Source of the DNA: Moniliella sp. 'wahieum'
Lineage: Eukaryota
Length of the DNA: 64,000 bases
NCBI GenBank assembly: GCA_003971905.1
Contig: RSEE01000039.1
Location: forward strand, 496,001-560,000
Reading direction: 5' to 3'
The notes below the pieces were generated by a model that had not been told where the DNA came from, did no database searches, and worked only from the letters and a program-made list of their open reading frames with translations. Shown one piece after another: positions 35,657 to 52,698 of this stretch. The first letter of the stretch is position 1; the number at the start of each line of letters is the position of its first letter. The position numbers and the translations under genes are program-made.

Positions 35657-36926
35657 TACAACCTCTCACCATGCTAATCCGTCTCGTCGACAACATGGTC
35701 CCGACAATGAACGGATTTAATCATTCTCGATGTGGGGGGCATAGTATACAAACCACACAGGTATTTATTCTCGCCGTCACAGCATTCACCGACCTTCAGC
35801 ATCTCCGTCTTGGTATATACTCAAGACCCAGATATCCCGGTAACACACACGCCCCAGAGGGAATGGGTACTATCTCCTTGTTCACTTTTCCGAATCGAGT
35901 ATCACGGAAGTGTTGGACATTATGGGGCCGAATGTATTGACAAATGGGGGCAAGTCGATGGTGGAAAGCTCGTTTGGAGTGTGGAAAAAAGGCTGGGGAC
36001 GTTTAAGGGCGAGAGAAAAGGACATACGAAGAGTCTTGGGGGATATCGGGAACGGGACATGGAGAGAGAGCGGTCAAGGAGAGAAAGGCGTTACGGTGAA
36101 CGCTACCGCGGGGATTACGGCGCAGCACATGCAGACGGGTTAGGGGCTAATGATGCATCAGAAAAAAAGGGAGGGGAATAGAGCGGGAGAAGTATAGACA
36201 AAGGGGTAGGTAGGATTTACTACTAGTAGTAGGGCAAATCGTGAGCGATAAGGTTTTGGACAGCGGGAACTCGCTCAACCCCCCGGATCCGTGAGGGAGA
36301 AAACAACAGCGGAGGGAAGGATGGAAGGCTCGGCAGTGCCAAACATCAGGTTGGCCCTCTTGAATGGCTTCTTTTGCAGAGTAATACTAGTACTAGACAA
36401 GTTAGGACGGCCATATACGGCGCGAATTGCAAGCCCTTACCACCGCGGCACTCGCCATACCCGATGTGCATATGGCGGAAGCGACGCGCAAATCCAACTT
36501 GCCCCCATCACTGCGTTGGGCCGGGAAGAGGTCAAGGTAGAGGCTAGAGGGGTATCGAAACCATGCATATAGGAAGGAAGGGAGAGGGAAACCGTGGTAA
36601 CCAAACGACTGTTGCCTCCCCATCCATTTTCGAGGACGCAATAGTCGATTGCTCCACCCTCCGAAAGGCACCCACATCATTCGAATCGGCGATGGCGAAT
36701 ATACTATGGACGCTGCCAGTTACGCCGCCGCTGCTCCATCCCCGCCCAGTGATGAAAAGCAGAGTATGTTGCTTTTCCCACCAGCCCGCTTCTTCCCTGC
36801 CCTGCCGTGTTACGTTCCTGCTCCTTTTCCCCATCTTCTACCGCGTTCGCTCCTCGTACAGAGAATGTGCATTGGTTGGCCTCCATGGAACTAGCCAGGA
36901 TCGCATCTCCGTGCACCCCGTCCTCC

Positions 36927-39120
36927 TCACTTGTTGTTCCACGCCCGCTGCTTTGCCGAGAGGAAAGAGCCAAAGTTGTTGATAGCCGAGCGGGCTTGTG
37001 TGGCCGCCTGGGCTCCGCCGCTGCGGCAGCTGTCGCTGCTTCCGAAGCTTGCTGGCTCAGATGCGGGGGCACCTGCCACGACTGTCCAGCCCCTTCTTGC
37101 GCAGGAAGCGGAGTCTGCTGCTGACGCTGTGCCTGTGCCTGTCGCTGGCCCTGGCCCTCTTGAGGTTGCTGGTATGTGGCCCATCGTTCCCCCAGGTCGT
37201 TCTTCGCGCGATCCGCAAACCGGGACAGGCCAGCGTACCCGGCAGAGGGGACTTGCCCAGTGCCTCCCGCGTCGGCTCGAGGTTCTTGTTAAGGGCGTGA
37301 CGCGCTCATTCACGTGCCACTGTTGCACTTGGCCACGGAGCTGTTCGTTGGCCGAGCGCAGATGCGAGTCCAACCCCCAGTCGTGCAGGCCCTGGGACAC
37401 GCGCAGCCCCACATCCTGCAACAACGTTACAGGGCCCTCGCATGGATGCCCTGTCGACGCCAACGGGCTCACATCCACCCCACCATCAGGCAGCGTCGGC
37501 AACGCGGCGGACGAGGCCGCATCCCAAACGCCAAACGCCGGTTCCGCCAACGCCGCAACAAAGTCGCGCCCAAAATGGGCAAGAGCGCATACGGTCCGGC
37601 GGCGGCACCTCCAGCTTCTCCCCTTCCTCCTCGTTTTGCAGCTCTTGCAGGGGCGTGGGCGGGACGGGCGTGTGGTGGGCAACCTTGACTGCTCCAAGCA
37701 GATTGCCCACATAGGTTTCGAACTGGTGCCGGATCCAGTCGTCGCTTCCCCGAAAGGAGAGGGTGGTGGGGCGACTGGGGTTGTCTGGGTCCCAGGTCTC
37801 TACCACGGCCGAGATGATCTCGTCGATCCACTTGCGGTCCGAAGCGGTCAAGGCCACCAGCTGGGCCAAGCGCGGACCGCGGACTAACTGCGCCTCTTCC
37901 GGCGACAGCAGCCCGGCATCCTGGGCTTTCTCCCCCTTGGCCAGAGGGAATTCAATGCTGCGTTGCTGCAGATCCACAAAGGCATCAATCACCACGTCAT
38001 TCTGCGAGCGAAACACGGCATTGCTCGTGCCCACCAGCCAGTGCTGCGCCGACAGCGAGCTCATCTCCTGCAACGGGATGTAGGGCTGGAATAGGGCCCC
38101 CTCACCAAAGAGTGGGAAGGGTAGCGCGCCAACCCTTTCAACGGGTTGGGCCCACCTTGCTCCACCGTCATCCACCCTGGCTCCTCCTCCTCCTTTCGCT
38201 GGGGTAGGGCACGCTGCTTCTCTGCCCGCGCCTTGAGCCGGTCGTCAGTGTTGTGCAGCAGCGCCGAGGCAGCATCCTGTAACCCGCCCTGGGTCAAGAT
38301 GCCCGGAACAAGCGAGACAATCGAGTATTCGTATGTGCACAGCCGCTCGATCGGATAGCCATGCAACATGACCCGCTTCTGAAGCAGGATGAGCTTGAGC
38401 AACACAAGCAGCTTGCCACGCCAGTCGTACACTAGCTCGCGCAACGAGGTGCCCATCCCCAGCGCGCTGGCACTGTCGGCCGTGACGAGCGAGAGATCCC
38501 CTCTTCCTCTCCACCCCCTCCTTCTCTCCTCTGCTCCGTCGTCCTGCTTGGGAAGCGCGCCAAGCCCCTGCCTGAGCCCCGTCTCAAGCGTCTCGTAAAA
38601 TTCGCTGAGGATCGTCGTGTCGCTGAGATCGGGCTGGGCAAAGTAGGCTTCCGTGACGATCCCCAGTTTTTGCCGCACCGGACCAAATACTGGCTGGCGC
38701 GCTAGCACCACCACTGCCTTCTGCACGGCCGAACGCGTGACATCGGCGCTTTGTGGGTCAGCTGGGAGGTCATGACCTGCCGCTGGCAGCTGATCCCAAA
38801 CAGCGTTGCGTTGGGCACCGATCCGGGCGCATAGAGGTGGAAGTAGCAGAAGTCTTCGTTCGACTATCCAAAGCACAGGAGCGTTAGACCAGACGGAGGG
38901 GCGTGGACAGAAGGCAGGAGCGACGTACAAGGTGGGAGCCGTCGGGCAGAGCAAAGAACGGGAGGTCGGTGAGCAGGTCCTGGTCCTGCATCAGGTCGGG
39001 GGGGAAGGTGTGTTCGACCTGCGGGCCGACCTGGTGGTGGAACTGGACCACGGCGACACCGAGCACGATGTTGTCCTGGGCGTTGTGCGGCGCATCGGAG
39101 GCGCTGCTGGAGGAGGACAT
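36927..39120 (-). CDS. AVL9: Avl9 (DENN-related late secretory pathway protein)
   Basis: VVQFHHQVGPQVE..LPFFALPDGSH; DVTRSAVQKAVVVLARQPVFG..KLGIVTEAYFAQ; LKLILLQKRVM; FQPYIPLQ; LTASDRKWID; FRGSDDWIRHQFETY. Confidence 0.92.
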
Positions 39121-39668
39121 GGCAGCGAGTGCGGTGGGCGCGAGCGCGACGGCAGGAGGCCGAGGGAAGTGGCAGCGGGAGGCGGTCGAGGGGGCCGTCG
39201 CCGTCGCCTCCACGTGGGCGCGCGTGCGCGGATTGGAAGTTTCAGCGGGCGATCGGATCGCCACTCGTTTCAACCCAGACGAGCAGCTGGCCAGCTGGCA
39301 GCGGCGGTTGCGTCTATGTTACCCACGTGCACGACACGTCTTCCTTCTCGCAGGCCCATTCCCCGCCTCTCTATCTCGTTTTGCTGTCGCCAGGTAGAAG
39401 CGCAGCCATCGGATGGCAGCCCACCCACCTCAACACGGAGGCACTGGAAACCTACTGACCACTCCACAAGGCAAGTCTCCTGGGGCGATGCACATGCAAG
39501 TGATATTACCATGGACCAAGCCAGCACGACGGTGCCTGAGGTAGCGTCCCTTTTGGTTCGGCTAGATCCACAGTAAGAAGCTGGAACGAACGGCGTTGGT
39601 CTGCAGCAGCATGTTGGGAAGCAGCCATCCCCTCTTTGGCAATGGAAAACGGCCCACGCGCTCGCGCT

Positions 39669-40300
39669 CTACACCATCTCCGCCTCCCCGCCGGCCTTCT
39701 CGATGGCGGCAATGATCTTCTCCGCATCCTCCTTCGGCACATTGTCCTTCAGGATTTGCGGTGCGCTCTCGACAAACTTCTTGGCCTCCACCAAGGACAT
39801 GGTCGAGTTGAGCGCCTTGACCTCCTTGATCACCTTGGCCTTCGCGCTGCCTTCCTTCAGCCCCTTGAGCTTAATGGCGAATATGTCTTTTCCTTGGGCT
39901 TCTCGGCTTCCTCAGCCTCTTCGGCTGGCGCCGCGGCCGCACCGGCACCGGGCGCAGCGGCTGCCACGGGCATCGCAATGTCCGTGATGTTCAGCCGCTC
40001 CTACATGGGGGGGGTCAGCCGGGGGGAGCAGCAGGGACAAGGCATAAGCGGGTGGAAAAGGGAGACGTACCTTGAGGAGCGTAACCAGCGACGAGGCTTC
40101 CAGCAGCGTCAACTTCTCCACTGTCTACGATCGCGACCAACTTGGGGTCCGGCGGGGCCCTTGGGCGCCTTGGAGGGAGCAGCGCCGTTCGCCTGCACCG
40201 CCGACACACTGAGTGCGCGCACCGATGGCCTGCCGATGGCCGGCGAGGCGGGGGCGCGTGCAAGCGCGCGCAGACCAGCACGGGGCACCAGGGCAAGCAT
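39669..40300 (-). CDS. MRPL12: Mitochondrial ribosomal protein L7/L12
   Basis: Presequence; KLTLLEASSLVTLLK|ERLNI; KAKVIKEVKAL..LVEAKKFVESAP..KDNVPKEDAEKI..KAGG. Intron 40070-40001. Confidence 0.92.
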
Positions 40301-40481
40301 CGTCGCGTTGGATCAGAGCAGCAGACGCCGCCCGCGCGCGAGAATGGCGGGCAGAGAGCGCAGGAAGGTCTTCTGGCGCTGACCGTAACGCCCGGCTGCC
40401 GGGCAGAGAAGGAGGCGGCGGCTGCCTGAGCGGCTCTGCAACATTCAATTCCGATGGCCTCCACGTTCGTTCGCCGTTGAT

Positions 40482-42147
40482 TCAACGCCCCACTATCCTC
40501 GCTTCCGCTGGGCCGTCGATGCCACGCGCAGTCGGCCACAGAGCAGCGGATAGACACCCTTGGTGTCCGTCATGGAGGTCCGACCACGGACCACCACAGT
40601 GGCCATTGCTGCCCCCGTCCCTCCGTGCGCTGCTGCACTTGCATCCCTCTGGGGCATCCATGTCTTGATGCGCGTCTGGCTCCGCATTCTCGTCGGCTGC
40701 GGGCCTCAAATATAGTACAGGGTCTGTAGCAGCCTCGGCAAACAGGAGGCAGACGGATAGGGTGCCAACACCAACGGGTCGGCCAGCCGGTCGGTGTAGG
40801 CCCGCACCAGATCCGCCCAGGGGAGAAGAGCGTGCCCTTGGGCAGGTCAGCGGGGGAGCGAGCCTGCGGGCGCCGGAACGAGGCGGAGGCAAACGCGCTT
40901 TTCACTGCAGCGTTCAGCTCGGCGGCCTGGACGACACGCAAGGGCGCCGCCGCTTCTGCCTCGTCCATCTCGTGCAGTGCGGGGGATCCAGGCGTGTCCC
41001 CGCCCAGATCGTTGTGGGTCTCCCTCAACAGGCGCCCCAATGTGGCATCCGGCCCATCGGGAATGTGTGCCACCGTCTCCAGGCCACGGTGGATGTTGGG
41101 AAGGCGGCGGCAAGGGCGTGGAGCATGTCGTTCCCCTTCGCTCTCCAATTGAGCAGGAACGCCAGATTGCCGGCCCGGTTGGTATCAGCCTGTGCGCGCA
41201 CAGCATCCTGCGCCCGGCGTGCAAGGTCCCACAATCCACTTTGGAACACGATAGGTCGAGGCAGAAGGTCGGGTGGGCGGAAGGGTGCTGCTGTAGGTCC
41301 CCGCGTCTGCCATGGCAGCCATAAGGGGCTGGAAGATGCGTCTCACACGGTCTTCGAACTCGCTGGGACCCCACACGACCCCGCCCTCGTTCCATGGCGC
41401 AAGGCAGGCGACATGCCAAAGTGGTAGACGGAGACCAACAACAAGTCGTCGGTGGGGAGGTGGCAGTAATCGGCAATGTGATGGGTGGTGTGGAAGCTGT
41501 TCTTGGGCGGAGGGCGGGCCCGCTTGTCGAGATTGCGTTTGCCCGGATCCAACTTTGTGGCCCAGGGTGAAAGCCGGTCACACTACGGCCGGCTGGCCGG
41601 CCAAGGCGCAAATTTGATGCACCAACGCGCGGTCCGTATGGTCGCCCACGAGCAGCACAGTCCGGTGCTGCATGGTCGCGTTCCACACCGCTTCGCCTCC
41701 CGCACTGCCGGACGCCATGTCCAGATACGCCTTTCCGGGTGGGTGTAGGCCGGCATGGTAAGGGGAGGAAGGAGAGCGGGATAAGAGGTAGGCCCAGAGC
41801 GCACTGCCCCCGACCGGAGTGCAGCTGTCGTCAAAGGTGTGCCATTGGGCCAACGGGCCTGGGACGTCGGCGGGGTAGGTGATGGGCATATCAGAGACGT
41901 AGCCCGGCGACTGCAGAGGGTCGCAGCCGCCCCGGCGCGGTTTGCGCACCCGCACTGGGCCAGACCAGGACAACGGCAAGGAAAACCTACCGGTGCTCAT
42001 CACCACCGCCAGCGCCACCCACAGCGCACAGAAGAGGGCGATGATGCGCCCCGCACGCAGCACCATTGGGGACGCCAGCGGCTGCGCTCCGGCGCCGGCG
42101 CCGCGCACGAGCCGCTGGCCAGTAGGGAGCGCCATATTCGATGGCAT
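40482..42147 (-). CDS. Cap64/Cas3-like (SGNH-like) type II membrane glycan-modifying protein
   Basis: TM IIALFCALWVALAVVM; CDPLQSPGYV; RTVLLVGDHTDR; HIADYCHLP..VSVYHFGM; FEDRVRRIF; SGLWDLAR. Resemblance to the Cryptococcus Cap64 family is from memory. 3' end uncertain. Confidence 0.55.
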
Positions 42148-43230
42148 TGGCGAGCGCGGGGCGGGGGTGGGCGTGAGGGAGAAGGCGGCGCACAGACGCA
42201 CCAGAGGGGTGTTCTCTCTGCGCTCTGCTCTCGCCTGCTCTCGCTCTCGCCCGCTTTTGTCCCGCACGGGTCTGCGCTCTGCCGCTGCTCCGCCACAGGG
42301 ACGCTTTCGAAGCGCCCATAGCCATCGACGGCGCACGTGACTCTAAAACGCCGCAACGTGCGTTCAACCTTTCATTATTCAATGCTGCCTGTTGAGCTAG
42401 GTGTTGGCTCGTGCTTTGGCCATGTCCCTTCAGTTCCTCCTCAGGTCTAGGAGCTCCGCTGGTTTCCCTCTCCTGTTTCCCTCCTTGTCCCACAGCTTAG
42501 CCCCTGATGGCACTCGCTGCTTGATGTTCCTCTGTAGGCAGTGCTGGTTGCCACACCACCACCAGTGCGATTGCATCCCCCTCAAGGACCATCAGGCCAT
42601 CAGGACTCTAGGTCTCATCACTGCCCCCCCTCTGGGTTTTCTCCGAAGGTCAAAACATCTCTCATTCCTTTCCCACATCAGTCCCCCATCAGAAGACTTA
42701 GTGAGAGGAACGATGGAGACGAGCGTTGCGACATCCGCCCCGCTCGAATAACTTATGCATGCTGTGGATATCATCTTCCACGGCTAGTCATGCTCGCATG
42801 GGCTTATCGGCATACGAAGCCTTGTTGTGCCCATTTTGCGCTCATAGTCTTGACAGAACCCTTCATCTGCCTATGAGCCTTGACAGAACCCTTCATCTGC
42901 TACGCGCCGGCTGCGCATCAGCGCATCAGCACCTTTGAAAAGGCGCACGGGCAGCTTTACTTAGCATTATTTACTTCCCAACCAACCCTCTGTGTGGGTC
43001 GCTCTGTCGCCCTTTCCAACTTCACGCTTGCGAGAATCTACAACTCACGCCTCTCTCAATATGCTTCCACATGTCGCGCTGTCTTGAGGCATCGAAAAGT
43101 AGACTGAGTGTGCCTTTAATTGCGGGCAAGAAAGCGGTAGCGCTCCGGGTTAAACGTTAACTAGACCACTGTCTTGGCTGCTTAGGTTCGCTGCGCTTTT
43201 CTCTCGTATCGGGATGCGATATCCAAGCCC

Positions 43231-43237
43231 TATATAA
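43231..43237 (+). promoter_or_regulatory. Candidate TATA box
   Basis: TATATAA followed by a pyrimidine-rich leader, upstream of the hairpin/PNRC locus. Confidence 0.5.
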
Positions 43238-43534
43238 TACTGGTGCCCTTGTGCCCGTCACGAGCTCCCACTCGCATCTCCTTTCCCCACACCCCCAGAC
43301 ATTAAGACCCCCAACACCAAAAATCCCCACCACCCTGCCCTCTTCCGTTCGTCTACCACGCCCATCTCGGCATTATGGCGTCTTCGCCGAATACGCGTCT
43401 CACCTCACCTCATGGTACAGCCCATCCTCGCTGTTGAACCCCAACACCAACCCCCCACTCCCATCCGGAAAAGCAGCGGTTCGTGGAACACAAAAGTTCT
43501 CCATTCGCACGCTACCGAAAACCCAGAAGAAAAC

Positions 43535-43832
43535 TGTCATAGTTTGGCTGATCTCGCTCCCATTTCCAATTTCTTCGTCTCGAGCGTCTCGCTCCTTCCC
43601 TGTTCCTTCCACTTCGCACCATGTCCTCTGTTCTTGCTTCTTCCCACGAACGATAATGTCACAATCGGGGCTAGGCGAGGGAGACCAGGATGGACTAGGC
43701 CAAGGGGTGTAGCAATCGTTCGTGGGAAGAAGCAAGAACAGAGGACATGGCGAAGTGGAAGGAACAGGGAAGGAGCGAGACGCTCGAGACGAAGAAATTG
43801 GAAATGGGAGCGAGATCAGCCAAACTATGACA
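43535..43832. repeat. Long near-perfect inverted repeat (arms 43535-43654 and 43715-43832, 60-nt loop)
   Basis: The right arm is the reverse complement of the left except for one 2-nt indel (ACTTCG[CA]CCATG). Confidence 0.97.
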
Positions 43833-44471
43833 AAACATCCCGCATTGCTTCGCAACCACAACAACACCCTAGTTCAGGCCCCTTGCCTCCTTCTAGTGAC
43901 CCACGACGCAAATATTCAGGCCAAAGCAGGAATGCACGCCCTGCTTCTTCCAGACGCTCAACTGGAAACCACGCAGGCAAGCGCAAGGATTCAATGTCAT
44001 ATCCTCTTGCCCCTGCAAAACACGCCCAGCATCCCCAAACGCAGAATATCTCATCCAGGCAAGACAGATGATTCCAGCAGCCCCCGCGTCCGCTCTCGTC
44101 CTGCGCAATCACGCAAAAAAAAGGACAAAAAGAAAAAGGTGTCACGTAAGACTACAATCACGCCCTACAGCAAGAACCGCGAACATCAGCTGCATTCGGA
44201 CCGCTCCTTCTCCCCGCCACCCACAGATTACTCCGATTTTTATGCTGGACCTCGTTTTTGCAACTCGCCCCCACCGGAGCAGCTGCCAACCCCGAAACGC
44301 CACCTGAAGGGGTCTTCGATGGAGATGGGTGGCAAACCCTCTCCTCCTCACCGTTTCTTCCAGTGTACCATGCTCTCCCGCCAAGCGATGATCTTTCGGA
44401 GGGGAGCAGTGCTATCGGGCTGCACCATCTCCAGCGGTTCGGCCAACCTTCCCCCCTCTTCCATCAATTGA
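43827..44471 (+). CDS. PNRC/Edc1-like mRNA decapping coactivator (start could instead be 43412)
   Basis: FYAGPRFCNSPPPEQLPTP matches the YAGxxFxxSPxPxxLPxP motif, within a basic disordered protein. Confidence 0.7.
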   Translation: MTKHPALLRNHNNTLVQAPCLLLVTHDANIQAKAGMHALLLPDAQLETTQASARIQCHILLPLQNTPSIPKRRISHPGKTDDSSSPRVRSRPAQSRKKKDKKKKVSRKTTITPYSKNREHQLHSDRSFSPPPTDYSDFYAGPRFCNSPPPEQLPTPKRHLKGSSMEMGGKPSPPHRFFQCTMLSRQAMIFRRGAVLSGCTISSGSANLPPSSIN

Positions 44472-45034
44472 CCCTGGGATCACCTTCCTCTCCTCTCGGG
44501 ACCTCCGACGTGTTACTGCAGGAGGGTCTACCGACCATAACCCCACGCATCCAGCAGGCCCCGAGACGGTCAACACACTCATGCAGAAGAGTTTGATCTT
44601 CGGCTTAGAGTCTTCGGTTCCCGCCGAGTAGCATATTGGAAGTCAAGAAAGGCACGATGTGTCTTTCTCTGTCATATGACATGTCTCTTCCTGTGGGTGG
44701 AGTGGTTTTGGTGACACGCCATTTCTTTCGGAATAATCCCTTTTATACCTGCCTCTCTGTCTCCGTCTTTTCTTCTGTTGTCACTTCTACTAAAACCCAA
44801 TGAAGGGAAAGCCTCCTTTCCCCCTTTTCTTTACGCTCATGGGCGATATATACCCACCGCGCCTCGCCGCCTCCCGACGCTTTCTCTCGTGCTCAATCCC
44901 CATCCTACCCAGTGAATTCCATTCTCTCTCAGCCCAAGCCCTCTCATGTGTTCATCTCTCTTTTCTCCTCCCAGTGGGCCTGCGTTGAATTGCAGGTGGC
45001 GACGAAATTAACGCAATTGAATGAAACCATATAT

Positions 45035-45118
45035 ACGCGTCGTATCGGCTGTGGACGTGCCGTGGGTGTCTCGACGCGCTTCAGCGCGTGGGCCCAACAC
45101 ATTAGGTAATTAACGCGT
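45035..45118. promoter_or_regulatory. MCB-like (ACGCGT) elements upstream of RAD51
   Basis: ACGCGT at 45035-45040 and 45113-45118, with CGCG cores between. MCB/MBF control of RAD51 is established in yeast. Confidence 0.55.
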
Positions 45119-45201
45119 TTAAAGTGCCTGGCTCGGGGGGACGTCGGCTGGCGTAGGCATTTGGCTAGGCGAGCACGACCACCAACCCCCCCACTCCCAC
45201 C

Positions 45202-46425
45202 ATGTCCGACACCGAAGCACACCACGCCGAAGCGGAATTCGAGGCCGAACGCCAGGAGGGAGAGGGGGAGGAGGAGGAGGAGATGGATATCGGGGGACCT
45301 ACACTCGTGTACCAGCTACAAGAGTGTGGCATCCCCGAGGGCGACTGCAAGCGGCTTGCCGAGGCAGGGTACCACACCGTTGAGGCCGTCGCCTTTAGCC
45401 CCAAGAAGAATCTTTTGCTCGTCAAGGGCATCTCAGAGGCCAAGGCCGATAAGATCCTCAAGGAAGGTGCGTAGTGCTGCCTTATATGCTGCGGGGAGCA
45501 CCATGCTGATGCTTGAGTGCAGCATTGCAACTCGTTCCTATGGGCTTCACTACCGCCACCGAGTTCCACCTCCGCCGCACTGACTTGGTTTACATCACCA
45601 CCGGATCCAAAAACCTCGATGGCATTCTTGGGGGAGGAATGGAAACCGGAAGCATCACTGAACTGTTTGGCGAGTACCGGACAGGAAAGAGTCAACTCTG
45701 CCACACCCTCGCCGTCACGTGCCAAGTTCGTCCCCTCCTCACCTTGCGTTGGTAGTGCCCCACGACTGACTGAGATCTAGTTACCAATCGACATGGGCGG
45801 AGGCGAGGGGAAGTGTCTCTACATTGACACGGAGGGGACCTTTGTAAGTGCGCATATCCTTTCGCACTACCCCAAGCGCATTCACTGACCCCGCGTCCAT
45901 ATCCAGCGTCCAGTCCGTGTCCTCGCCGTCGCGGAGCGTTACGGTTTGAACGGTGACGAGGTGTTAAACATCGCCTATGCTCGTGCGCAGAATGCGGATC
46001 ACCAGCAACATCTTCTCCTTATGGCATCTGCTATGATGGCCCAATCTCGGTTTTCCCTCATTATTGTCGATTCGCTTACCAATCTGTATCGGACTGACTT
46101 CAGTGGGCGCGGCGAGCTCAGTGCCCGCCAAACCCACCTTGCAAAGTTTCTTCGCACACTCCAGCGCCTCGCTGACGAGTTTGGTGTGGCCGTCGTGATT
46201 ACGAATCAAGTTGTGGCCCAGGTCGATGGCGCTGTCTTTGGTGGCGACTCTAAGAAACCCATTGGGGGGAATATTGTCGCTCATGCATCCACCACCCGCT
46301 TGGCTTTGCGAAAGGGCCGCGGCATCCAACGTATCTGCCGCATTGCCGATTCACCCTGTCTACCCGAGGCGGATGCGGTGTATGCCATTGGCCCTGAAGG
46401 CATTTGCGACCCAGTACCCGAATAA
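45202..46425 (+). CDS. RAD51: DNA recombinase Rad51
   Basis: [78 protein letters not shown]. Introns 45467-45522, 45726-45780 and 45844-45906. Confidence 0.98.
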
Positions 46426-46550
46426 TGTTTTCCTCCTGTGGCCTTCTCCCTGTCCCATGTGCACCATGCCGTTCTAGATCCTCGACCGCATCCCCCTTTC
46501 TTCGCAAAAGAGCGTCTCTACTGTTTCGTAGCACCAAGAAATACCACATT

Positions 46551-47687
46551 TCATTTGGTTGCTTCAATCCTCTGGCGGGGGTTCGCTCTGAACCAAGGAC
46601 GCCTTACCATCTCCTGTAGTCGCTCCACATCTCCATCCGCATACTCCTTAGCTCGCACTCGTACCGTGTAGAGAACCGCCTCAATTTTGCGGATGCTCTC
46701 CTGCGTAACTGACTGCTTCTTCTTCAGTTCTCGCCGGCTGCGAAAGGGAAGTCGCGCATGAAACTCCTCCAACGTCTCATACAACTCTCGGAGCGTAGCA
46801 AGGGCTGACTTGACCACACTCCCCGTCACATCGCCCGCCCCCACCGCATTCGTCGCCACACGCATCAACTCCCCAGCCACATCCGAGATTCCTAGGAGGT
46901 ACCGCGTCGGCGGGACAGAAAAGACCTGCACCTTGTCCGTTGTGCCCATGGGCTCGGAAGGAGAGGATCGTGGGTTGACCAGGTCTTCCGTGGCGCGCCG
47001 CTTGAGCGGCGGGCCACTCGCCTCCTCTTCCTCCGGCACCGACGGGGAACGTAGAAGAGGTCTTGCACTACCCTGTATGGAATCAAGGCTTGATGTTGCA
47101 AAAAGTACTTGAGCGACAAGGCTTCAATCTGCTGGCAGTCAGTTTCCTAGTTTCCTCTTCTTTTCCTCCCCCCCTCTCGATCCTCATCAAAGAGACACGG
47201 GAAACGCAACATAAACTCCTCCAGGCCCGAGCCATAGTAATGCTCGTACCGGTCGGCATCCAGGGCCGAGCCGGGGTCCAACCCTTCCTCTTGTGCCGAA
47301 GTCACGATGGCGGTGCGCACCTTTTCGAGCGCACCGTGCGCTTCCTCTAACAAGCGCGCATTGGCAGGGTGCAGGCTGCCGGGGGCACGGCCCGACGCGT
47401 CCGCCAGGTCCCGCACAAGGTTGTACCGCTGCAGCGTAAAAATGACCTTCTTGCTGTCGGCCGTCACGTCGCGTGATAGACGAATCAAGCGTTCCATCTT
47501 GTTGTGGTGTGCGTCCAGCTCGCCCCGTAGCTCAGTGAAGAGCGCCACCGTTTCCTGTGTGGCGGCGGGGGTGTCCCGCTGTGCGCCACGTGCTTCGCCG
47601 GGGCGGCCCCTGGCTCTCGTCCAGGACCACGATCGCGACCACGCCCGCGCCCGCGGGCGGAAGGGTGGTTGGACGCCGTTCGGACAT
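46551..47687 (-). CDS. TSNAX: Translin-associated factor X (TRAX), translin family
   Basis: ELDAHHNKMERLIRLSRDVTADSKKVIFTLQR; GLEEF; YLLGISDVAGELMR; KKQSVTQESIRKIE..YTVRVRAKEY. Confidence 0.88.
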
Positions 47688-48748
47688 GCTGGTGGTGCGT
47701 GGGGCTAGGGGGAATGAGGTGAACGGTGAAGGCGACCCGCAGTCGCCTGGGCGGTAGCTTACTTAGACGGAGGTTGGAGCGTGGCAAAATTCTGGACGCA
47801 CCTGCGGCCTGGCACCTGGCACGTTGACTACCAACCAGTAATAGTAACCAGCAGCCAGCAGCTAGCAGCTGGCGACCACGTAACAATTTCAAAACCCAGT
47901 CCCACCCCCCCGCCTCGTTCCGCATTCAGGGGCGGAATGAGGATGAATCCTGGCCTCCACGGAGAACGTTACTGCGCCTCCCCAAATGGGTTCCCCGCGC
48001 CGGCACAATTTTTTCGTTCTTCCTCCTCATCGCCTTTGCCGCCTTTTCTTCATCGTCTTCGGCTGCAGCCTTTCTCCTTTCGCCTTTCGCCCTTTGCCCT
48101 TTCTCCCTTTTGTTCGCCTGCCCATGCTCGTTTAGGTATGTGTTCTCTGCTCCAACCTCCCTCTTCCTTTCTGGGATGAGAAACATTGATACACACTGAA
48201 GAGTCCGAGGCCTTCTTTTGAGGCCTGTGCGGACCCATCATTAGCGCTATCTGAATTATGCCCAACTACGTGAAAGGAAGGCTGTGTACTGACTTTCGAT
48301 CTGCTTCAGTTCCTCTTCTCCAGTGTGGGCCAGTTGTGTGAGCCGGCCGGTGAGTTCTCTGGTAAGTTCTGTTCTCTTCGTTTGTGTTGTTATGCCTTGT
48401 TTCTCCCTCATGCTTTACTTGGAGCGTGGCTAGTAGCACACATGTAGTTGCTTGAGGGCCTGTTGAGCCAGTGAGGTCGAAGAAAGAGAGCCAATACGAA
48501 ACTGCACTGTTGCCAGGGGCTGCTGGTAAAAAATGGCGACACTTAATTGCTCGGCGCCGGAACCCTAGCACGCGTTTGCACCGTCTTGCTCCCATCGGTC
48601 TTGGTCTTGGACTGGGCAACCAAAACCATCACGACGGCGAGGCAACAACAAGCGGAAGGCACGCGACGCGTCTACATCACCGTCGGTGCCAACCGCGTTA
48701 CGTTGCATACGTCCGTTTTCGTCTCCTCTTATCTCCGTACCCCCCACC

Positions 48749-50011
48749 ATGGTCCTCCGCGGATCCAGCAAAGCGGATGGTACGTCTGCTTGCGTCGCGC
48801 TCCACGGCACTTCTGTACTGACCCCTGGCTTGCAGAGGATGTACAGCTGTGGGCTACGATTCGCAACCAGCTGCGCGAAATTGATGAGCTGCAGGATCGA
48901 ATCCAGCCCCTGCAGGAGGAATATGAGCGGGCCCATAATCCCACCGTCAAGTCCGAACGTTCCTTGGACGAGATACGGGAAGACCTGAACCCTCTGCTGG
49001 TGCGTGCCCACGACCTGTCGGAAAACACGATGGAGAAGGTGGATATCCTCCAGGCTCTCCTAACTTCCACGGGGGACGAGTTTGATTCGGGACGCAAACG
49101 AAGGAGGGTGGAAGCCTCGTCGCCGGGACCGACGATCTTGTCCACCTCTAGCCGTAAGGCTTCCCCCCTCTCTCCCCCCAGGCCGATAAGCCCGAGAAGA
49201 AGAAAGTGTATCGCCGCGCCCCGGCGGGCAAGGGCGTGACCAGCGCCGGCACCACAGCCGTTCCCACCAACACCGCCAACACCCTCTCCTCCTTTGGCGG
49301 CTGGACCGATCCGGCTAGGTCACGCAGGGAACAGCTCAGCTCCCAACTGCCGCTTCGCAAGGGAAGAAAGGTTGCTTTCCGCCAACCGTTGAATAAGAGC
49401 GACTCTCACGCCCCGACGACGGCGAAACGTGGATCATGGCCACCGTGCTCGAATGTATCAACAACGATCGCAATCGCTATGTGGTCAAGGATGCGGATCC
49501 TGATATGAGTTCGTCCCCCCCCTCCCTCCCCTGCACCTCTCCACGGCGTACTGGTGGATGTACGTTGGCTGACATGACATTGCATCAGGACAACATACAA
49601 TACGACCCTCAAGGCCATTGTGCCTTTGCCCGAGTCGTCCGAAACGCTGCCCACCAAAGACTATGTCGTGGGCCAAGACGTGTTGGCAGTCTATCCCGAC
49701 ACCTCCTGCTTCTACCGTGCGACCGTGCGCGGTGGGGGACCCGGACTGAAAGGAACTGAAAAGGTACGTTGGCTGGCCCCGCTGTGCTGCGCGCTTCCCG
49801 CTGCTGGTCTTTGCGGGCAAGAGAAAAAGGGGGGAACCGCAAAGGTCGCTATACAGAGAGAAAACTGACCCTCGCCTAACCCTCGGCATCGCAGCTCCGC
49901 AAAGTGTCTCCCGATTTGCTCAACATCCCGTACCAACTCGCGTTTGAGGACGACGACGACGATGTCAAGTCCGTCCCGGCCTACCTGGTGGTGGAGCGTC
50001 CCAGGGTGTAA
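48749..50011 (+). CDS. SGF29: SAGA-associated factor 29 (tandem Tudor)
   Basis: N-terminal coiled coil; QLPLRKGRKVAFRQP; WIMATV..RYVVKDADP; VLAVYPDTSCFYRATV; YQLAFEDDDD..VPAYLVVE. Confidence 0.92.
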
Positions 50012-51113
50012 TGGGTAATGGGTAATGGGCAATGGGCGCGCGTCTCCCCCGACTCTCCGATCCGGTTTGACGATTATCTTGCTCTCGTGTATGCTTCGCA
50101 ACGGACTTGCTCAATCCGCCTGACTGCCTGGCGCACCCATAGCGCACGGGAGGCACTTGTACAACTGTCGGTGGTCCGACTGGGGCGGCAGAGTGCCTGT
50201 ATAGTTACGACACCCTACCTACTCCAGGGAGACAACGGAGAGTGTATTTGTTACGGGGGACTGGTGCAATGATTTGGGATTGTCTCCGGACGCAATGCCC
50301 CCCATGTCGCATAGACTTCTCACTCAAAACACACGCCAGTCCCGTATGATCCGTCAGACGAGCGAGAGAGTCAGGAGGCAACTACTGCATCGACGGTGCT
50401 GCGCATATCCTCCGCGCGCCCGGCTAGGGCCACATGCGATCATCGGTACGATGCTTACTACCCTTTGCGTCCAGTCTCGACAGAACCCTTCACCTGGGTT
50501 CGCCTTTCTCTCTCTGCAAAGTTCCCACGTCCTGTTCATACCTGCCTTGATCAGCGCGATCCTCCAGTGTATACGCAGCCTTATTGTCGGAGGCGTGTCA
50601 GCTGTCGTCGGCCTTATCGTCCATCTTGCTGCGTAGTACCAACTAGACCAACCCCTTCCCAACCCTGGCCAGCACTTTGGCTACCCTTGCACCTTCTCCG
50701 GCAGTGGTTGCTCTTAGGCGGATGGTCGTTCCAATTCGATTGAAGGCTTGTAGTTAGGAATGCGTCCCATCTCGGGGCCAAGACAGGAGTGTGGTATTAC
50801 AGCGCTGCGAAACCAGCGGGGGCGCCCTTGCGGCCATTAACCAGTGCCTCTTCAGGAGGCAGCGCGAGATGCGACGGACGCAACCAATTTTCTTGGCTCG
50901 GGCTGGGGGCCTTGCATGTGCGATGCTCAGACGGCGGGCGGAGCGCTGCGTGCTGCGCACACGGCGTCTTCAAAGACTGAATCCCAGACGGGGCGCACTG
51001 GGGCCGCTGACGTCAGCGCGGGGTGCGGTCTGTGCGGCGGGCCCGATTGGGTCGCACAGACAAGCGCCGCCGCCCGCCGCCGCTCTCCCGCCAAGTGCGA
51101 GATCAGGGCCACA

Positions 51114-52698
51114 ATGAGCGGCGAGCAGTGCCACGTCGCCCACGACTGGTTCGGCTCCTTCATCGGCGTTTCCTCCTCACCGGCCTCGCCGTCTCCTACC
51201 TCCCCCAGCTCTTGCGCATCATCCTTGCCCGGAACTCCTGGGCCTCTCCCCCTGGTTCCTGCCTCGGCACCACGTCCTCCGCCTCGGGCTTCTTCAACTC
51301 CTTACCCTCCAGTGGGGTGTTGTGCGCTGCTGCCCCACCCTTGGCACAGGCCTCTGCCTCGAAGGCCTGCTCGGCGTCTTCCAGGTCGGCCTCCAGTGGC
51401 TGCTGCTGCTGAGCGTGTATGTGTGCCCTCCTTTGCTGTGGTCTACGTATCTGTGCTGACACACCACGCCCCGCAGCTTTGGCCTCTATCTCTACTATTA
51501 CCCAGAGGAGGAGCGTTACGAGCACGCGGTGGCCTTGGACGAGGAGGACCAGGCATCCGGCGACGGCTCCGAAGACGAGTCCGAGGACAGTGGGGTCCAG
51601 TCGGCGGAGCAGACGCCCAGCCCGTCTACCATTGCCCGCTTCACCGATGCTGAGCTCAGGCGGAAGAAGACGAGGTCAGCAGCAGCGCTTTCGCCCGTCG
51701 TGCCCAGTTTTTGGCCCATGTGGAAAGCTCCTCAACGTGGTCGTGCCCCGCCAGGTCCATCCCCGCTCGGACGCCCGCCGGCTACCCCGCCCGTACGGCA
51801 GGGAGCCGACGGCTCCCTTCAACCCATCGGCGCTTCCTCTGGTATCATCTCCCATTCGGCTTCGGCTTCGGCCTCGGCTTCGGCTTCGGCCTCGGCTTCG
51901 GCTTCGACTTCAGCTGTGGCGACCCCCCCATCCCAAGGTGCGGCGGTAAAGAAGGTGACGATTGCACCGCTGCCTCCGCGGGCGGGCGTTTCAAGCATGT
52001 TTGGGCTCTGGCGCCAGGAGATCCGGAGCAAGTGGCGGACCAAGACCCCCGAATGGGCCTTGGCCACCGCCTTGGCTTGGGTGGCGGCCATCCATTTCGT
52101 CTTTTGTTTCCTGGTGACCTTCATTCTTGTCTTGTCGCTGCCAGGGAGTGCGTTCCCTATCCCTGCCGACCCGTCGCTCCCTGCGCCTCTGCCGCCCGCC
52201 TTTGTGCCCAAGGGGATGAGTCCCAGCAAACTGCTGCATGGCTGGGCGACGTTCCTGGGAGTGAGTGGCACCCTGCTGGCCATGGCGCAGTACTTTCCGC
52301 AGCTACTCTACACCTTCTCCCATCGCATCGTCGGCTCTCTCTCGATCCCCACCATGCTCATCCAGACACCAGGCACGGCGGTGTTTATCTACTCGCTCAT
52401 GATCCGGCCGGGTGTGAACTGGACGAGCCTGCTGTCGTACTGCTGCACCGGTGTTCTGCAGGGCACCCTCCTTGTCCTCTGCATCTGCTTCAAGTTCCGC
52501 CAAGCCAGCCTCGGCATCGACGACTTTGGCCACCCGCTCCTCCCGCCGGGGGCGAGGAGGAGGAGGAGACACTGCCCGCTGTGTTGGCGGCGGCGCAGGG
52601 GCGGTCGGAGGAGCAGGTGCCGCCGGCGCCAGCGGAGGAGTAGGAGGAGCGCTGTGTGCTGGAGGGAGGGGGGCACGAAGCTCTGTCCCGAGGTGTAG
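51114..52698 (+). CDS. PQ-loop membrane protein
   Basis: GLAVSYLPQLLRII..NSW; WATFLGVSGTLLAMAQYFPQL..VGSLSIPTMLIQTPG..RPGVNWTS. Confidence 0.9.

Follow-up and report, generated by a model that had tools for sequence, protein, structure and literature searches.

How a long, almost perfect hairpin came to lie in the leader of a gene predicted to control mRNA decay, and whether it serves that gene, is the question raised by a 64,000-nucleotide stretch of DNA from Moniliella sp. 'wahieum' (contig RSEE01000039.1, positions 496,001 to 560,000; the whole stretch is hereafter called the window). The hairpin is encoded by a 298-bp palindrome at positions 43535-43832 of the window, and the gene is an open reading frame (ORF) at 43827-44471 on the plus strand, which carries the motif of the Edc1/PNRC family of decapping activators. 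Our analyses indicated that the palindrome is real in the sequence record, rare and far beyond chance. We tentatively read it, with a probability of about 0.4, as a young insertion of the foldback type, resembling a miniature inverted-repeat transposable element (MITE), in the 5' leader of the Edc1/PNRC-type gene.

Anatomy, folding and rarity of the palindrome

The palindrome is composed of a left arm of 120 nt (43535-43654), which is C/T-rich and starts with TGTCA, a spacer or loop of 60 nt (43655-43714), which is G-rich (G 0.40) and weakly self-complementary, and a right arm of 118 nt (43715-43832), which is G/A-rich, has TGACA at its end and holds the ATG at 43827. One 2-nt indel is the sole difference between the arms, and the inverted repeat is made of two perfect blocks, one of 83 nt (43535-43617 with 43750-43832) and the other of 36 nt (43619-43654 with 43715-43750). 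An earlier note on this DNA, made from the letters alone, had described a 120/118-bp inverted repeat with one 2-nt indel and a 60-nt loop, the right arm ending just past the ATG at 43827; both the coordinates and the end of the arm, at 43832, were confirmed. Since the arms carry no substitutions, either the event that gave rise to the palindrome is young or the identity of the arms has been maintained by gene conversion.

The palindrome is flanked by a direct repeat of 4 bp, AAAC, lying flush with it on the left (43531-43534) and on the right (43833-43836), which is a possible target-site duplication; given the local base composition, the chance of such a flush match is 0.0066. The base composition of the arms (T 0.38, A 0.12) was compared with that of the two flanks, both of which are richer in A (0.26-0.27) and poorer in T (0.18). 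In twenty-five pairwise local alignments among five segments (the arms, the spacer and the flanks, with 60 shuffles each), the upstream flank and the spacer each gave one short self-complementary match that beat all shuffles, and neither of these two matches links the arms or the spacer to the flanks.

The hairpin described in the earlier note was borne out by RNA folding. The minimum free energy predicted for 43500-43870 was -258.6 kcal/mol, against -107.7 +/- 5.2 kcal/mol in dinucleotide shuffles (z -29.1), and none of the 100 shuffles was as stable. When the palindrome stretch was folded as DNA, a value of -164.9 kcal/mol was obtained (z -28.6). The stem-loop is stable in the sense strand, that is, the strand of the transcript, and by symmetry the opposite strand folds too.

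Searches for comparable structures indicated that this is the sole inverted repeat of at least 30 nt (within 3 kb) across the window. When perfect arms of at least 40 nt within 1.5 kb were sought in 855,770 bases, comprising the window and 80 fungal metagenome loci that add up to 792 kb, the palindrome was again the only one found. Comparison with Rfam gave five matches, all far below the gathering score, the best of them (37.5 bits, against 100) being of a generic hairpin or miRNA-precursor type. An exact search with the 23-nt terminus yielded no match in prokaryote genome contigs and none in viral contigs, a result of little weight because these collections hold no fungi. The LIRBase paper on long inverted repeats has no fungal data and covers only arms longer than 400 nt.

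The Edc1/PNRC-like gene and its leader

The ORF at 43827-44471, in frame 0 of the plus strand, encodes 214 amino acids when read from ATG 43827 and 179 when read from ATG 43932, and it holds YAGPRFCNSPPPEQLPTP. The family-specific part is confined to 44241-44297, where YAGPRF (44247-44264), a motif of the Dcp2-activating type, precedes a proline-rich stretch that closes with LPTP, of the Dcp1-binding type. The same arrangement, YAGxxF and then a proline-rich LPxP, is common to this protein and to the Edc1 family, represented by Schizosaccharomyces pombe Edc1 (SPAC18G6.09c), yeast Edc1 and Edc2 and metazoan PNRC2 (PF15365). Comparison of the motif in the window, FYAGPRFCNSPPPEQLPTPK, with that of S. 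pombe Edc1, LYAGPTFTHSPAASNLPIPT, showed that YAGPRF is aligned with YAGPTF and SPPPEQLPTP with SPAASNLPIP, the latter pair being proline-rich motifs of the Dcp1/EVH1-binding type. The account given in PMC5861098 describes how Dcp1 is bound and Dcp2 activated by YAGxxF and proline-rich motifs arranged in tandem.

Profile, sequence and cluster searches agreed with this assignment. The Pfam PNRC profile (PF15365) matched residues 139-157 with positions 1-19 of its 20, and the score of 22.2 bits (E-value 1.3e-4) exceeds the curated gathering cut-off, which is 21; because the ORF was picked from the whole window, the effective significance is weaker, with an E-value that we estimate at roughly 0.05 for the six-frame search space. 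When the 56-residue segment around the motif was compared with 177,635 distinct sequences of solved chains, the top two were the S. pombe Edc1 peptides 5jp4_B and 5j3q_B, with the aligned pattern YAGP-F--SP----LP-P and with E-values, 0.077 and 0.16, that are marginal. The nearest clusters of the ESM Atlas were PNRC in 30 of 30 cases, the best with a score of 0.90 and 190 of 256 features in common, and one of the nearest PNRC clusters is mainly composed of Ascomycota, with members of about 144 amino acids.

Beyond the motif of roughly 20 residues no similarity to the Edc1 family was detectable, and the N-terminus and start of the window protein are uncertain. A word-index search for homologues of the ORF returned 99 candidates, none with an E-value of 0.001 or lower, and the same search limited to the motif region returned no candidate. 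The HMMER search against 1.84 billion representatives gave a sole match (P0001), a tandem-repeat protein that aligned in five places, with identities of 25-31%, and was rejected as spurious. The predicted protein is small, basic and rich in S, P and K, and it is disordered. We accept the ORF, by the evidence of its motif, as an Edc1/PNRC-type decapping-activator protein with a predicted function, and the identity proposed in the earlier note was thus upheld by the Pfam match, the Edc1 peptides and the Atlas clusters. The annotation of this gene is in itself a routine gain.

Upstream of the gene, as had been noted earlier, is a TATA-like box of putative function, TATATAA, at 43231-43237 on the plus strand, followed by a C/T-rich tract; by our estimate, chance alone would yield a few heptamers of this kind in 64 kb. 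Seven ATGs lie between this box and ATG 43827, at 43375, 43412, 43621, 43656, 43690, 43747 and 43804. Because of these seven upstream ATGs, and because ATG 43827 is inside the right arm and base-paired in the stem, it is unlikely to be the start reached by scanning on a full-length leader. Hairpins stronger than about -50 kcal/mol block ribosome scanning. The first of the upstream ATGs opens a 20-codon upstream ORF (uORF) in frame 1 (43375-43437). The second opens the alternative ORF of 43412-44071, which the earlier note had seen to read through both arms; it indeed extends in frame 2 through both arms and the spacer for 219 codons, with no match among Pfam families. We attach little weight to this open frame, given that stop codons are scarce in this C-rich region and long open frames are common there.

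Two candidate 5' splice sites of the sequence GTTCGT, at 43347-43352 (model M1) and at 43479-43484, were identified by pattern scan on the plus strand, together with a candidate branch site, AGTGACC (43895-43901), and a 3' splice site, TTCAG, ending at 43919. The donor hexamer is the same as that of intron 2 of the Rad51 gene in the window. The corresponding candidate introns, 43347-43919 (573 nt) and 43479-43919 (441 nt), both contain the entire palindrome. No ATG is found from the TATA-like box to the donor at 43347, so that with this donor exon 1 would be free of ATGs and the first ATG past the acceptor would be 43932, which is in the PNRC frame and gives the 179-residue protein. The palindrome may lie in a 5'-UTR (untranslated region) intron, with translation from ATG 43932, as judged from these splice signals.

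A different intron, from a GT at 43415 to an AG at 43876-43877, had been put forward in the earlier note as a means of removing the hairpin. Both sites are present, and joining them places ATG 43412 in frame 0; their signals are weak, however, and GTTCGT at 43347 or 43479 with AGTGACC and the acceptor at 43919 makes a better pair. A codon-usage score, trained on 1,334 codons of the neighbouring genes, reached its maximum (0.14-0.16, a weak signal) in frame 0, in windows whose first position falls at 43770-43890, and was positive in no frame upstream of about 43650. Together with the profile of G+C at third codon positions, which was uninformative, this score is too weak to settle the reading frame or the start codon. 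An intron of 49 nt or of 82-85 nt starting from GTCATA at 43996, which would lead from frame 2 to frame 0, was set aside on account of its poor donor and branch signals.

Two further features of the leader were observed. Three plus-strand copies of GTTCGT (43347, 43479 and 43718) fall within about 370 nt, where we estimate that about 0.4 would be expected in the whole 1.5-kb region scanned; the copy at 43718 marks the right arm's inner end, and those at 43479 and 43718 have the 8-mer GTTCGTGG in common. In addition, a 19-nt imperfect palindrome (GCGTCTTCGCCGAATACGC, 16 of 19 positions self-complementary) occupies 43377-43395, starting 2 nt into the uORF begun at 43375 and overlapping it; when the upstream flank was compared with itself, it outscored all 60 shuffles.

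Origin and possible effects of the palindrome

From its termini, its flanking repeat and its composition we tentatively infer that the palindrome was inserted, in one mutational step and very recently, as a small non-coding element that has terminal inverted repeats of 120 bp, is bounded by TG...CA and duplicated its 4-bp target, AAAC. The ends of the unit are sharp and the AAAC repeats are flush with them; the termini, TGTCA...TGACA, match the pattern TGTNR; and the arms and the spacer show neither resemblance to the flanks nor, for the arms, a composition like that of either flank. The unit is enclosed by candidate splice signals of the local type, with the PNRC frame entered at the first ATG past the acceptor. 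Terminal inverted repeats, a small non-coding size and a flush target-site duplication, by which foldback elements and MITEs are recognised, were all found here.

Among known elements, the unit was compared with Ginger2, for which the account in PMC2836005 gives TGTNR ends, inverted repeats of 50-180 bp, 4-bp duplications and a preference for RTATAY targets, and which in that account is represented in fungi only by a vestige in Malassezia. The unit resembles Ginger2 and MITEs in being short, non-coding and mostly made of terminal inverted repeats (118/120 nt), with ends that fit TGTNR and a 4-bp flanking repeat. It differs in its target, AAAC rather than RTATAY, and in that one copy is known.

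Such an insertion would have carried in ATG 43827, and the original start codon would be ATG 43932. The element would lie within the non-coding leader and would possibly be spliced out as part of a 5'-UTR intron (43347 or 43479 to 43919), which before the 302-bp insertion would have measured 271 or 139 nt. If that intron is spliced, the hairpin would be gone from the mRNA, the gene would be normal and the insertion probably neutral; the hairpin might even reduce the effective distance between donor and branch site. If the hairpin is retained, the 118-bp duplex would bury AUG 43827 and halt scanning ribosomes, and in a fungus proficient in RNA interference (RNAi) it would be cut by Dicer, the net outcome being a weakened allele and not a designed switch.

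Several observations weigh against an insertion or against the intron proposed for it. The AAAC repeat and the TG/CA ends were spotted after the fact, and target duplications of 4 bp are unusual among the superfamilies of DNA transposons that are common in fungi. The 64-kb window contained no further copy of the unit, and the presence of several copies is a defining feature of transposons. Ginger2 is reported to prefer RTATAY, which the target here (AAAC, within GAAAAC/AT) does not match. The candidate branch site is GTGAC and not of the local CTGAY type, and splice signals such as these are expected by chance in an estimated 15-30% of cases, which makes them weak evidence; the codon-usage method is likewise weak, held-out Rad51 exons scoring 0.10 and 0.32. 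When the unit is removed together with one AAAC, ATG 43412 becomes the start of a 52-codon uORF. Removal of the 298 nt alone, or the undoing of a template switch, gives one long ORF of 253 or 313 codons, respectively, with the motif included, and this restored frame mildly favours the template-switch origin considered next.

A local template switch, or an inverted duplication at a staggered break, would also produce the palindrome in one step, and we regard it as possible, if doubtful. The nascent strand would have copied the left arm and the next 60 nt off the opposite strand and then returned, so that the 60-nt segment would be inverted and an inverted copy of the 120-nt arm added; a longer N-terminal coding region may have been split in this way. 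The spacer and the right arm stand out as a single block rich in G (0.40 and 0.36) where the surrounding stretch of this strand is rich in C (0.36-0.42), as is expected of inverted local C-rich DNA, and the ancestor deduced from the upstream flank, the left arm, the reverse complement of the spacer and the downstream flank has an unbroken ORF of 313 codons running in frame from ATG 43412 into the PNRC motif. An open in-frame ancestor has, however, a chance of about 0.2 (one of three frames, times 0.665 for an open spacer) in this stop-poor region and is weak evidence. The left arm is unlike the upstream flank in composition (T 0.38 versus 0.18), and the flush AAAC repeat is not predicted by a template switch.

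Template switching has reportedly been found to produce hairpins in two further studies besides PMC10710096, where the events described are perfect hairpins made in single steps. The palindrome resembles such hairpins in having a perfect reverse-complement copy beside its presumed source, an adjacency that is seen here, and an apparently inverted spacer, and existing promoters could transcribe the new structure. It differs from them in its flanking 4-bp repeat, which is unexpected, and in its copied tract, which at 178 nt would be longer than the published examples (28 and up to 83 bases among the events given in PMC10710096). The suggestion in the earlier note of a very recent inverted duplication comes near to the reading that the substitution-free arms, the sharp ends and the flush 4-bp repeat point to.

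An assembly or library artefact, in which a chimeric fold-back molecule entered the contig, is unlikely. Chimeric library molecules are known to yield perfect palindromes, and the feature is unique in 856 kb; on the other hand, it is located mid-contig and flanked on either side by unique sequence, it has a 60-nt spacer that is not palindromic, and its arms differ by the 2-nt indel, which is not expected of a single folded-back molecule. The neighbouring genes, Rad51 for example, also read cleanly. Other origins of the palindrome take up what probability remains.

The earlier note had put forward a gene controlled by its own double-stranded RNA, through occlusion of the start codon, as a source of small interfering RNAs (siRNAs) or microRNA-like RNAs (milRNAs), or as a hairpin intron. 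The hairpin would then be a selected part of the gene, hiding the start codon, feeding Dicer with a substrate for small RNAs against the gene's own mRNA, or acting as a structured intron that tunes the level of the activator. We consider evolved self-regulation of this kind improbable. The hairpin does lie on the sense strand between the TATA-like box and the ORF, burying ATG 43827, and the extreme rarity of such repeats makes its location in an RNA-decay gene notable. A perfect duplex of 118 bp is long enough for Dicer, and long natural hairpin RNA (hpRNA) loci that yield endogenous siRNAs reportedly exist in animals such as Drosophila. Fungal small-RNA loci with hairpins, in or near genes and introns, have been reported as well, although the annotation of such loci is often doubtful and natural long hairpins have been little explored, as far as the account in PMC9757828 goes.

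Other observations oppose self-regulation. With arms free of substitutions, covariation is impossible to see and the palindrome has the look of a new mutation; functional hairpins of some age normally contain G-U pairs and bulges. The Rfam comparison stayed below every gathering score, the search for orthologous loci turned up none with this structure, and a PNRC gene was near none of the 80 Rad51-linked fungal loci; its location in an RNA-decay gene is a single coincidence. The hairpin resembles hpRNA and milRNA loci in being a long, near-perfect intramolecular duplex that would be a Dicer substrate if transcribed. An hpRNA locus is, however, a separate locus aimed at another gene, whereas this hairpin is inside its own presumptive target gene, and the stem of a typical milRNA precursor is far shorter than the present one.

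Improbable too, in our judgement, is the specific case in which the hairpin is transcribed in the decapping-activator pre-mRNA and processed by Dicer, either as an exonic 5' leader or as an intronic, mirtron-like structure, into siRNAs against the leader itself. The leader of the same gene would be the target because the right arm carries AUG 43827. If this were so, a filamentous fungus would have a natural hairpin-RNA locus that acts in cis, tying RNA interference directly to the dosage of a decapping activator and caught very soon after its birth. The interpretation given in the earlier note was partly supported: the gene identity and the alternative of a recent duplication hold.

If the palindrome is confirmed, the locus would be a clean and rare natural case of a near-perfect 118-bp hairpin in the leader of a gene for mRNA-decay control. 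It would offer a natural test of how a filamentous fungus handles a long endogenous hairpin (by splicing, by a block of scanning or by Dicer), of whether new loci for hairpin RNA arise when a transposon inserts or when the template is switched, and of whether an insertion of this sort affects the dosage of an Edc1-type activator. Should the palindrome be a neutral intronic insertion or an artefact, the locus would be ordinary.

Neighbouring genes and minor observations

The window has a G+C content of 60%, and the neighbours of the PNRC-like gene are Avl9, Rad51 and a Translin-family gene. Rad51 (45202-46425, plus strand) has three introns, with the signals GTGCGT...GCTGAT...CAG, GTTCGT...ACTGAC...TAG and GTAAGT...ACTGAC...CAG, respectively; all three are short and follow GTNNGT at the donor, CTGAY at the branch site and YAG at the acceptor, a pattern typical of filamentous ascomycetes. 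The last 160 residues of the protein were 69-82% identical to the best 80 relatives on metagenome contigs, which is low for Rad51 and suggests, at the level of sequence, a divergent lineage or a fast-evolving copy.

These 80 relatives also served as a sample for synteny. A total of 584 stretches matched the search pattern, 478 of them encoded relatives, and the best 80 loci were kept. YAGxxF together with a proline motif was found in none of the 80 loci, whether a strict or a loose pattern was applied, and the tblastx comparison of window positions 36000-52000 with the same loci revealed no convincing common neighbours. One tblastx match near the PNRC position, in locus L006, was ruled out, its translation lacking the motif.

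The Translin-family gene (46554-47704, minus strand) is convergent with Rad51 and consists of two ORF pieces that match PF01997 (E-values of 1.2e-20 and 6.4e-8). Translin and TRAX proteins are linked to RNA processing and to RNAi in some organisms. On the other side, Avl9 is found at 37486-38990 on the minus strand; the interval between Avl9 and the PNRC-like gene includes a block of 62-72% G+C (39500-42400) with long overlapping open frames on both strands, and none of the four ORFs tested there had a Pfam match. Between this block and the PNRC-like gene, at 42846-42900 and about 350 nt upstream of the TATA-like box, a 25-nt sequence (AGYCTTGACAGAACCCTTCATCTGC) occurs twice as a direct repeat, the copies being 30 nt apart and 96% identical; duplication of a promoter element or slippage may account for the repeat.

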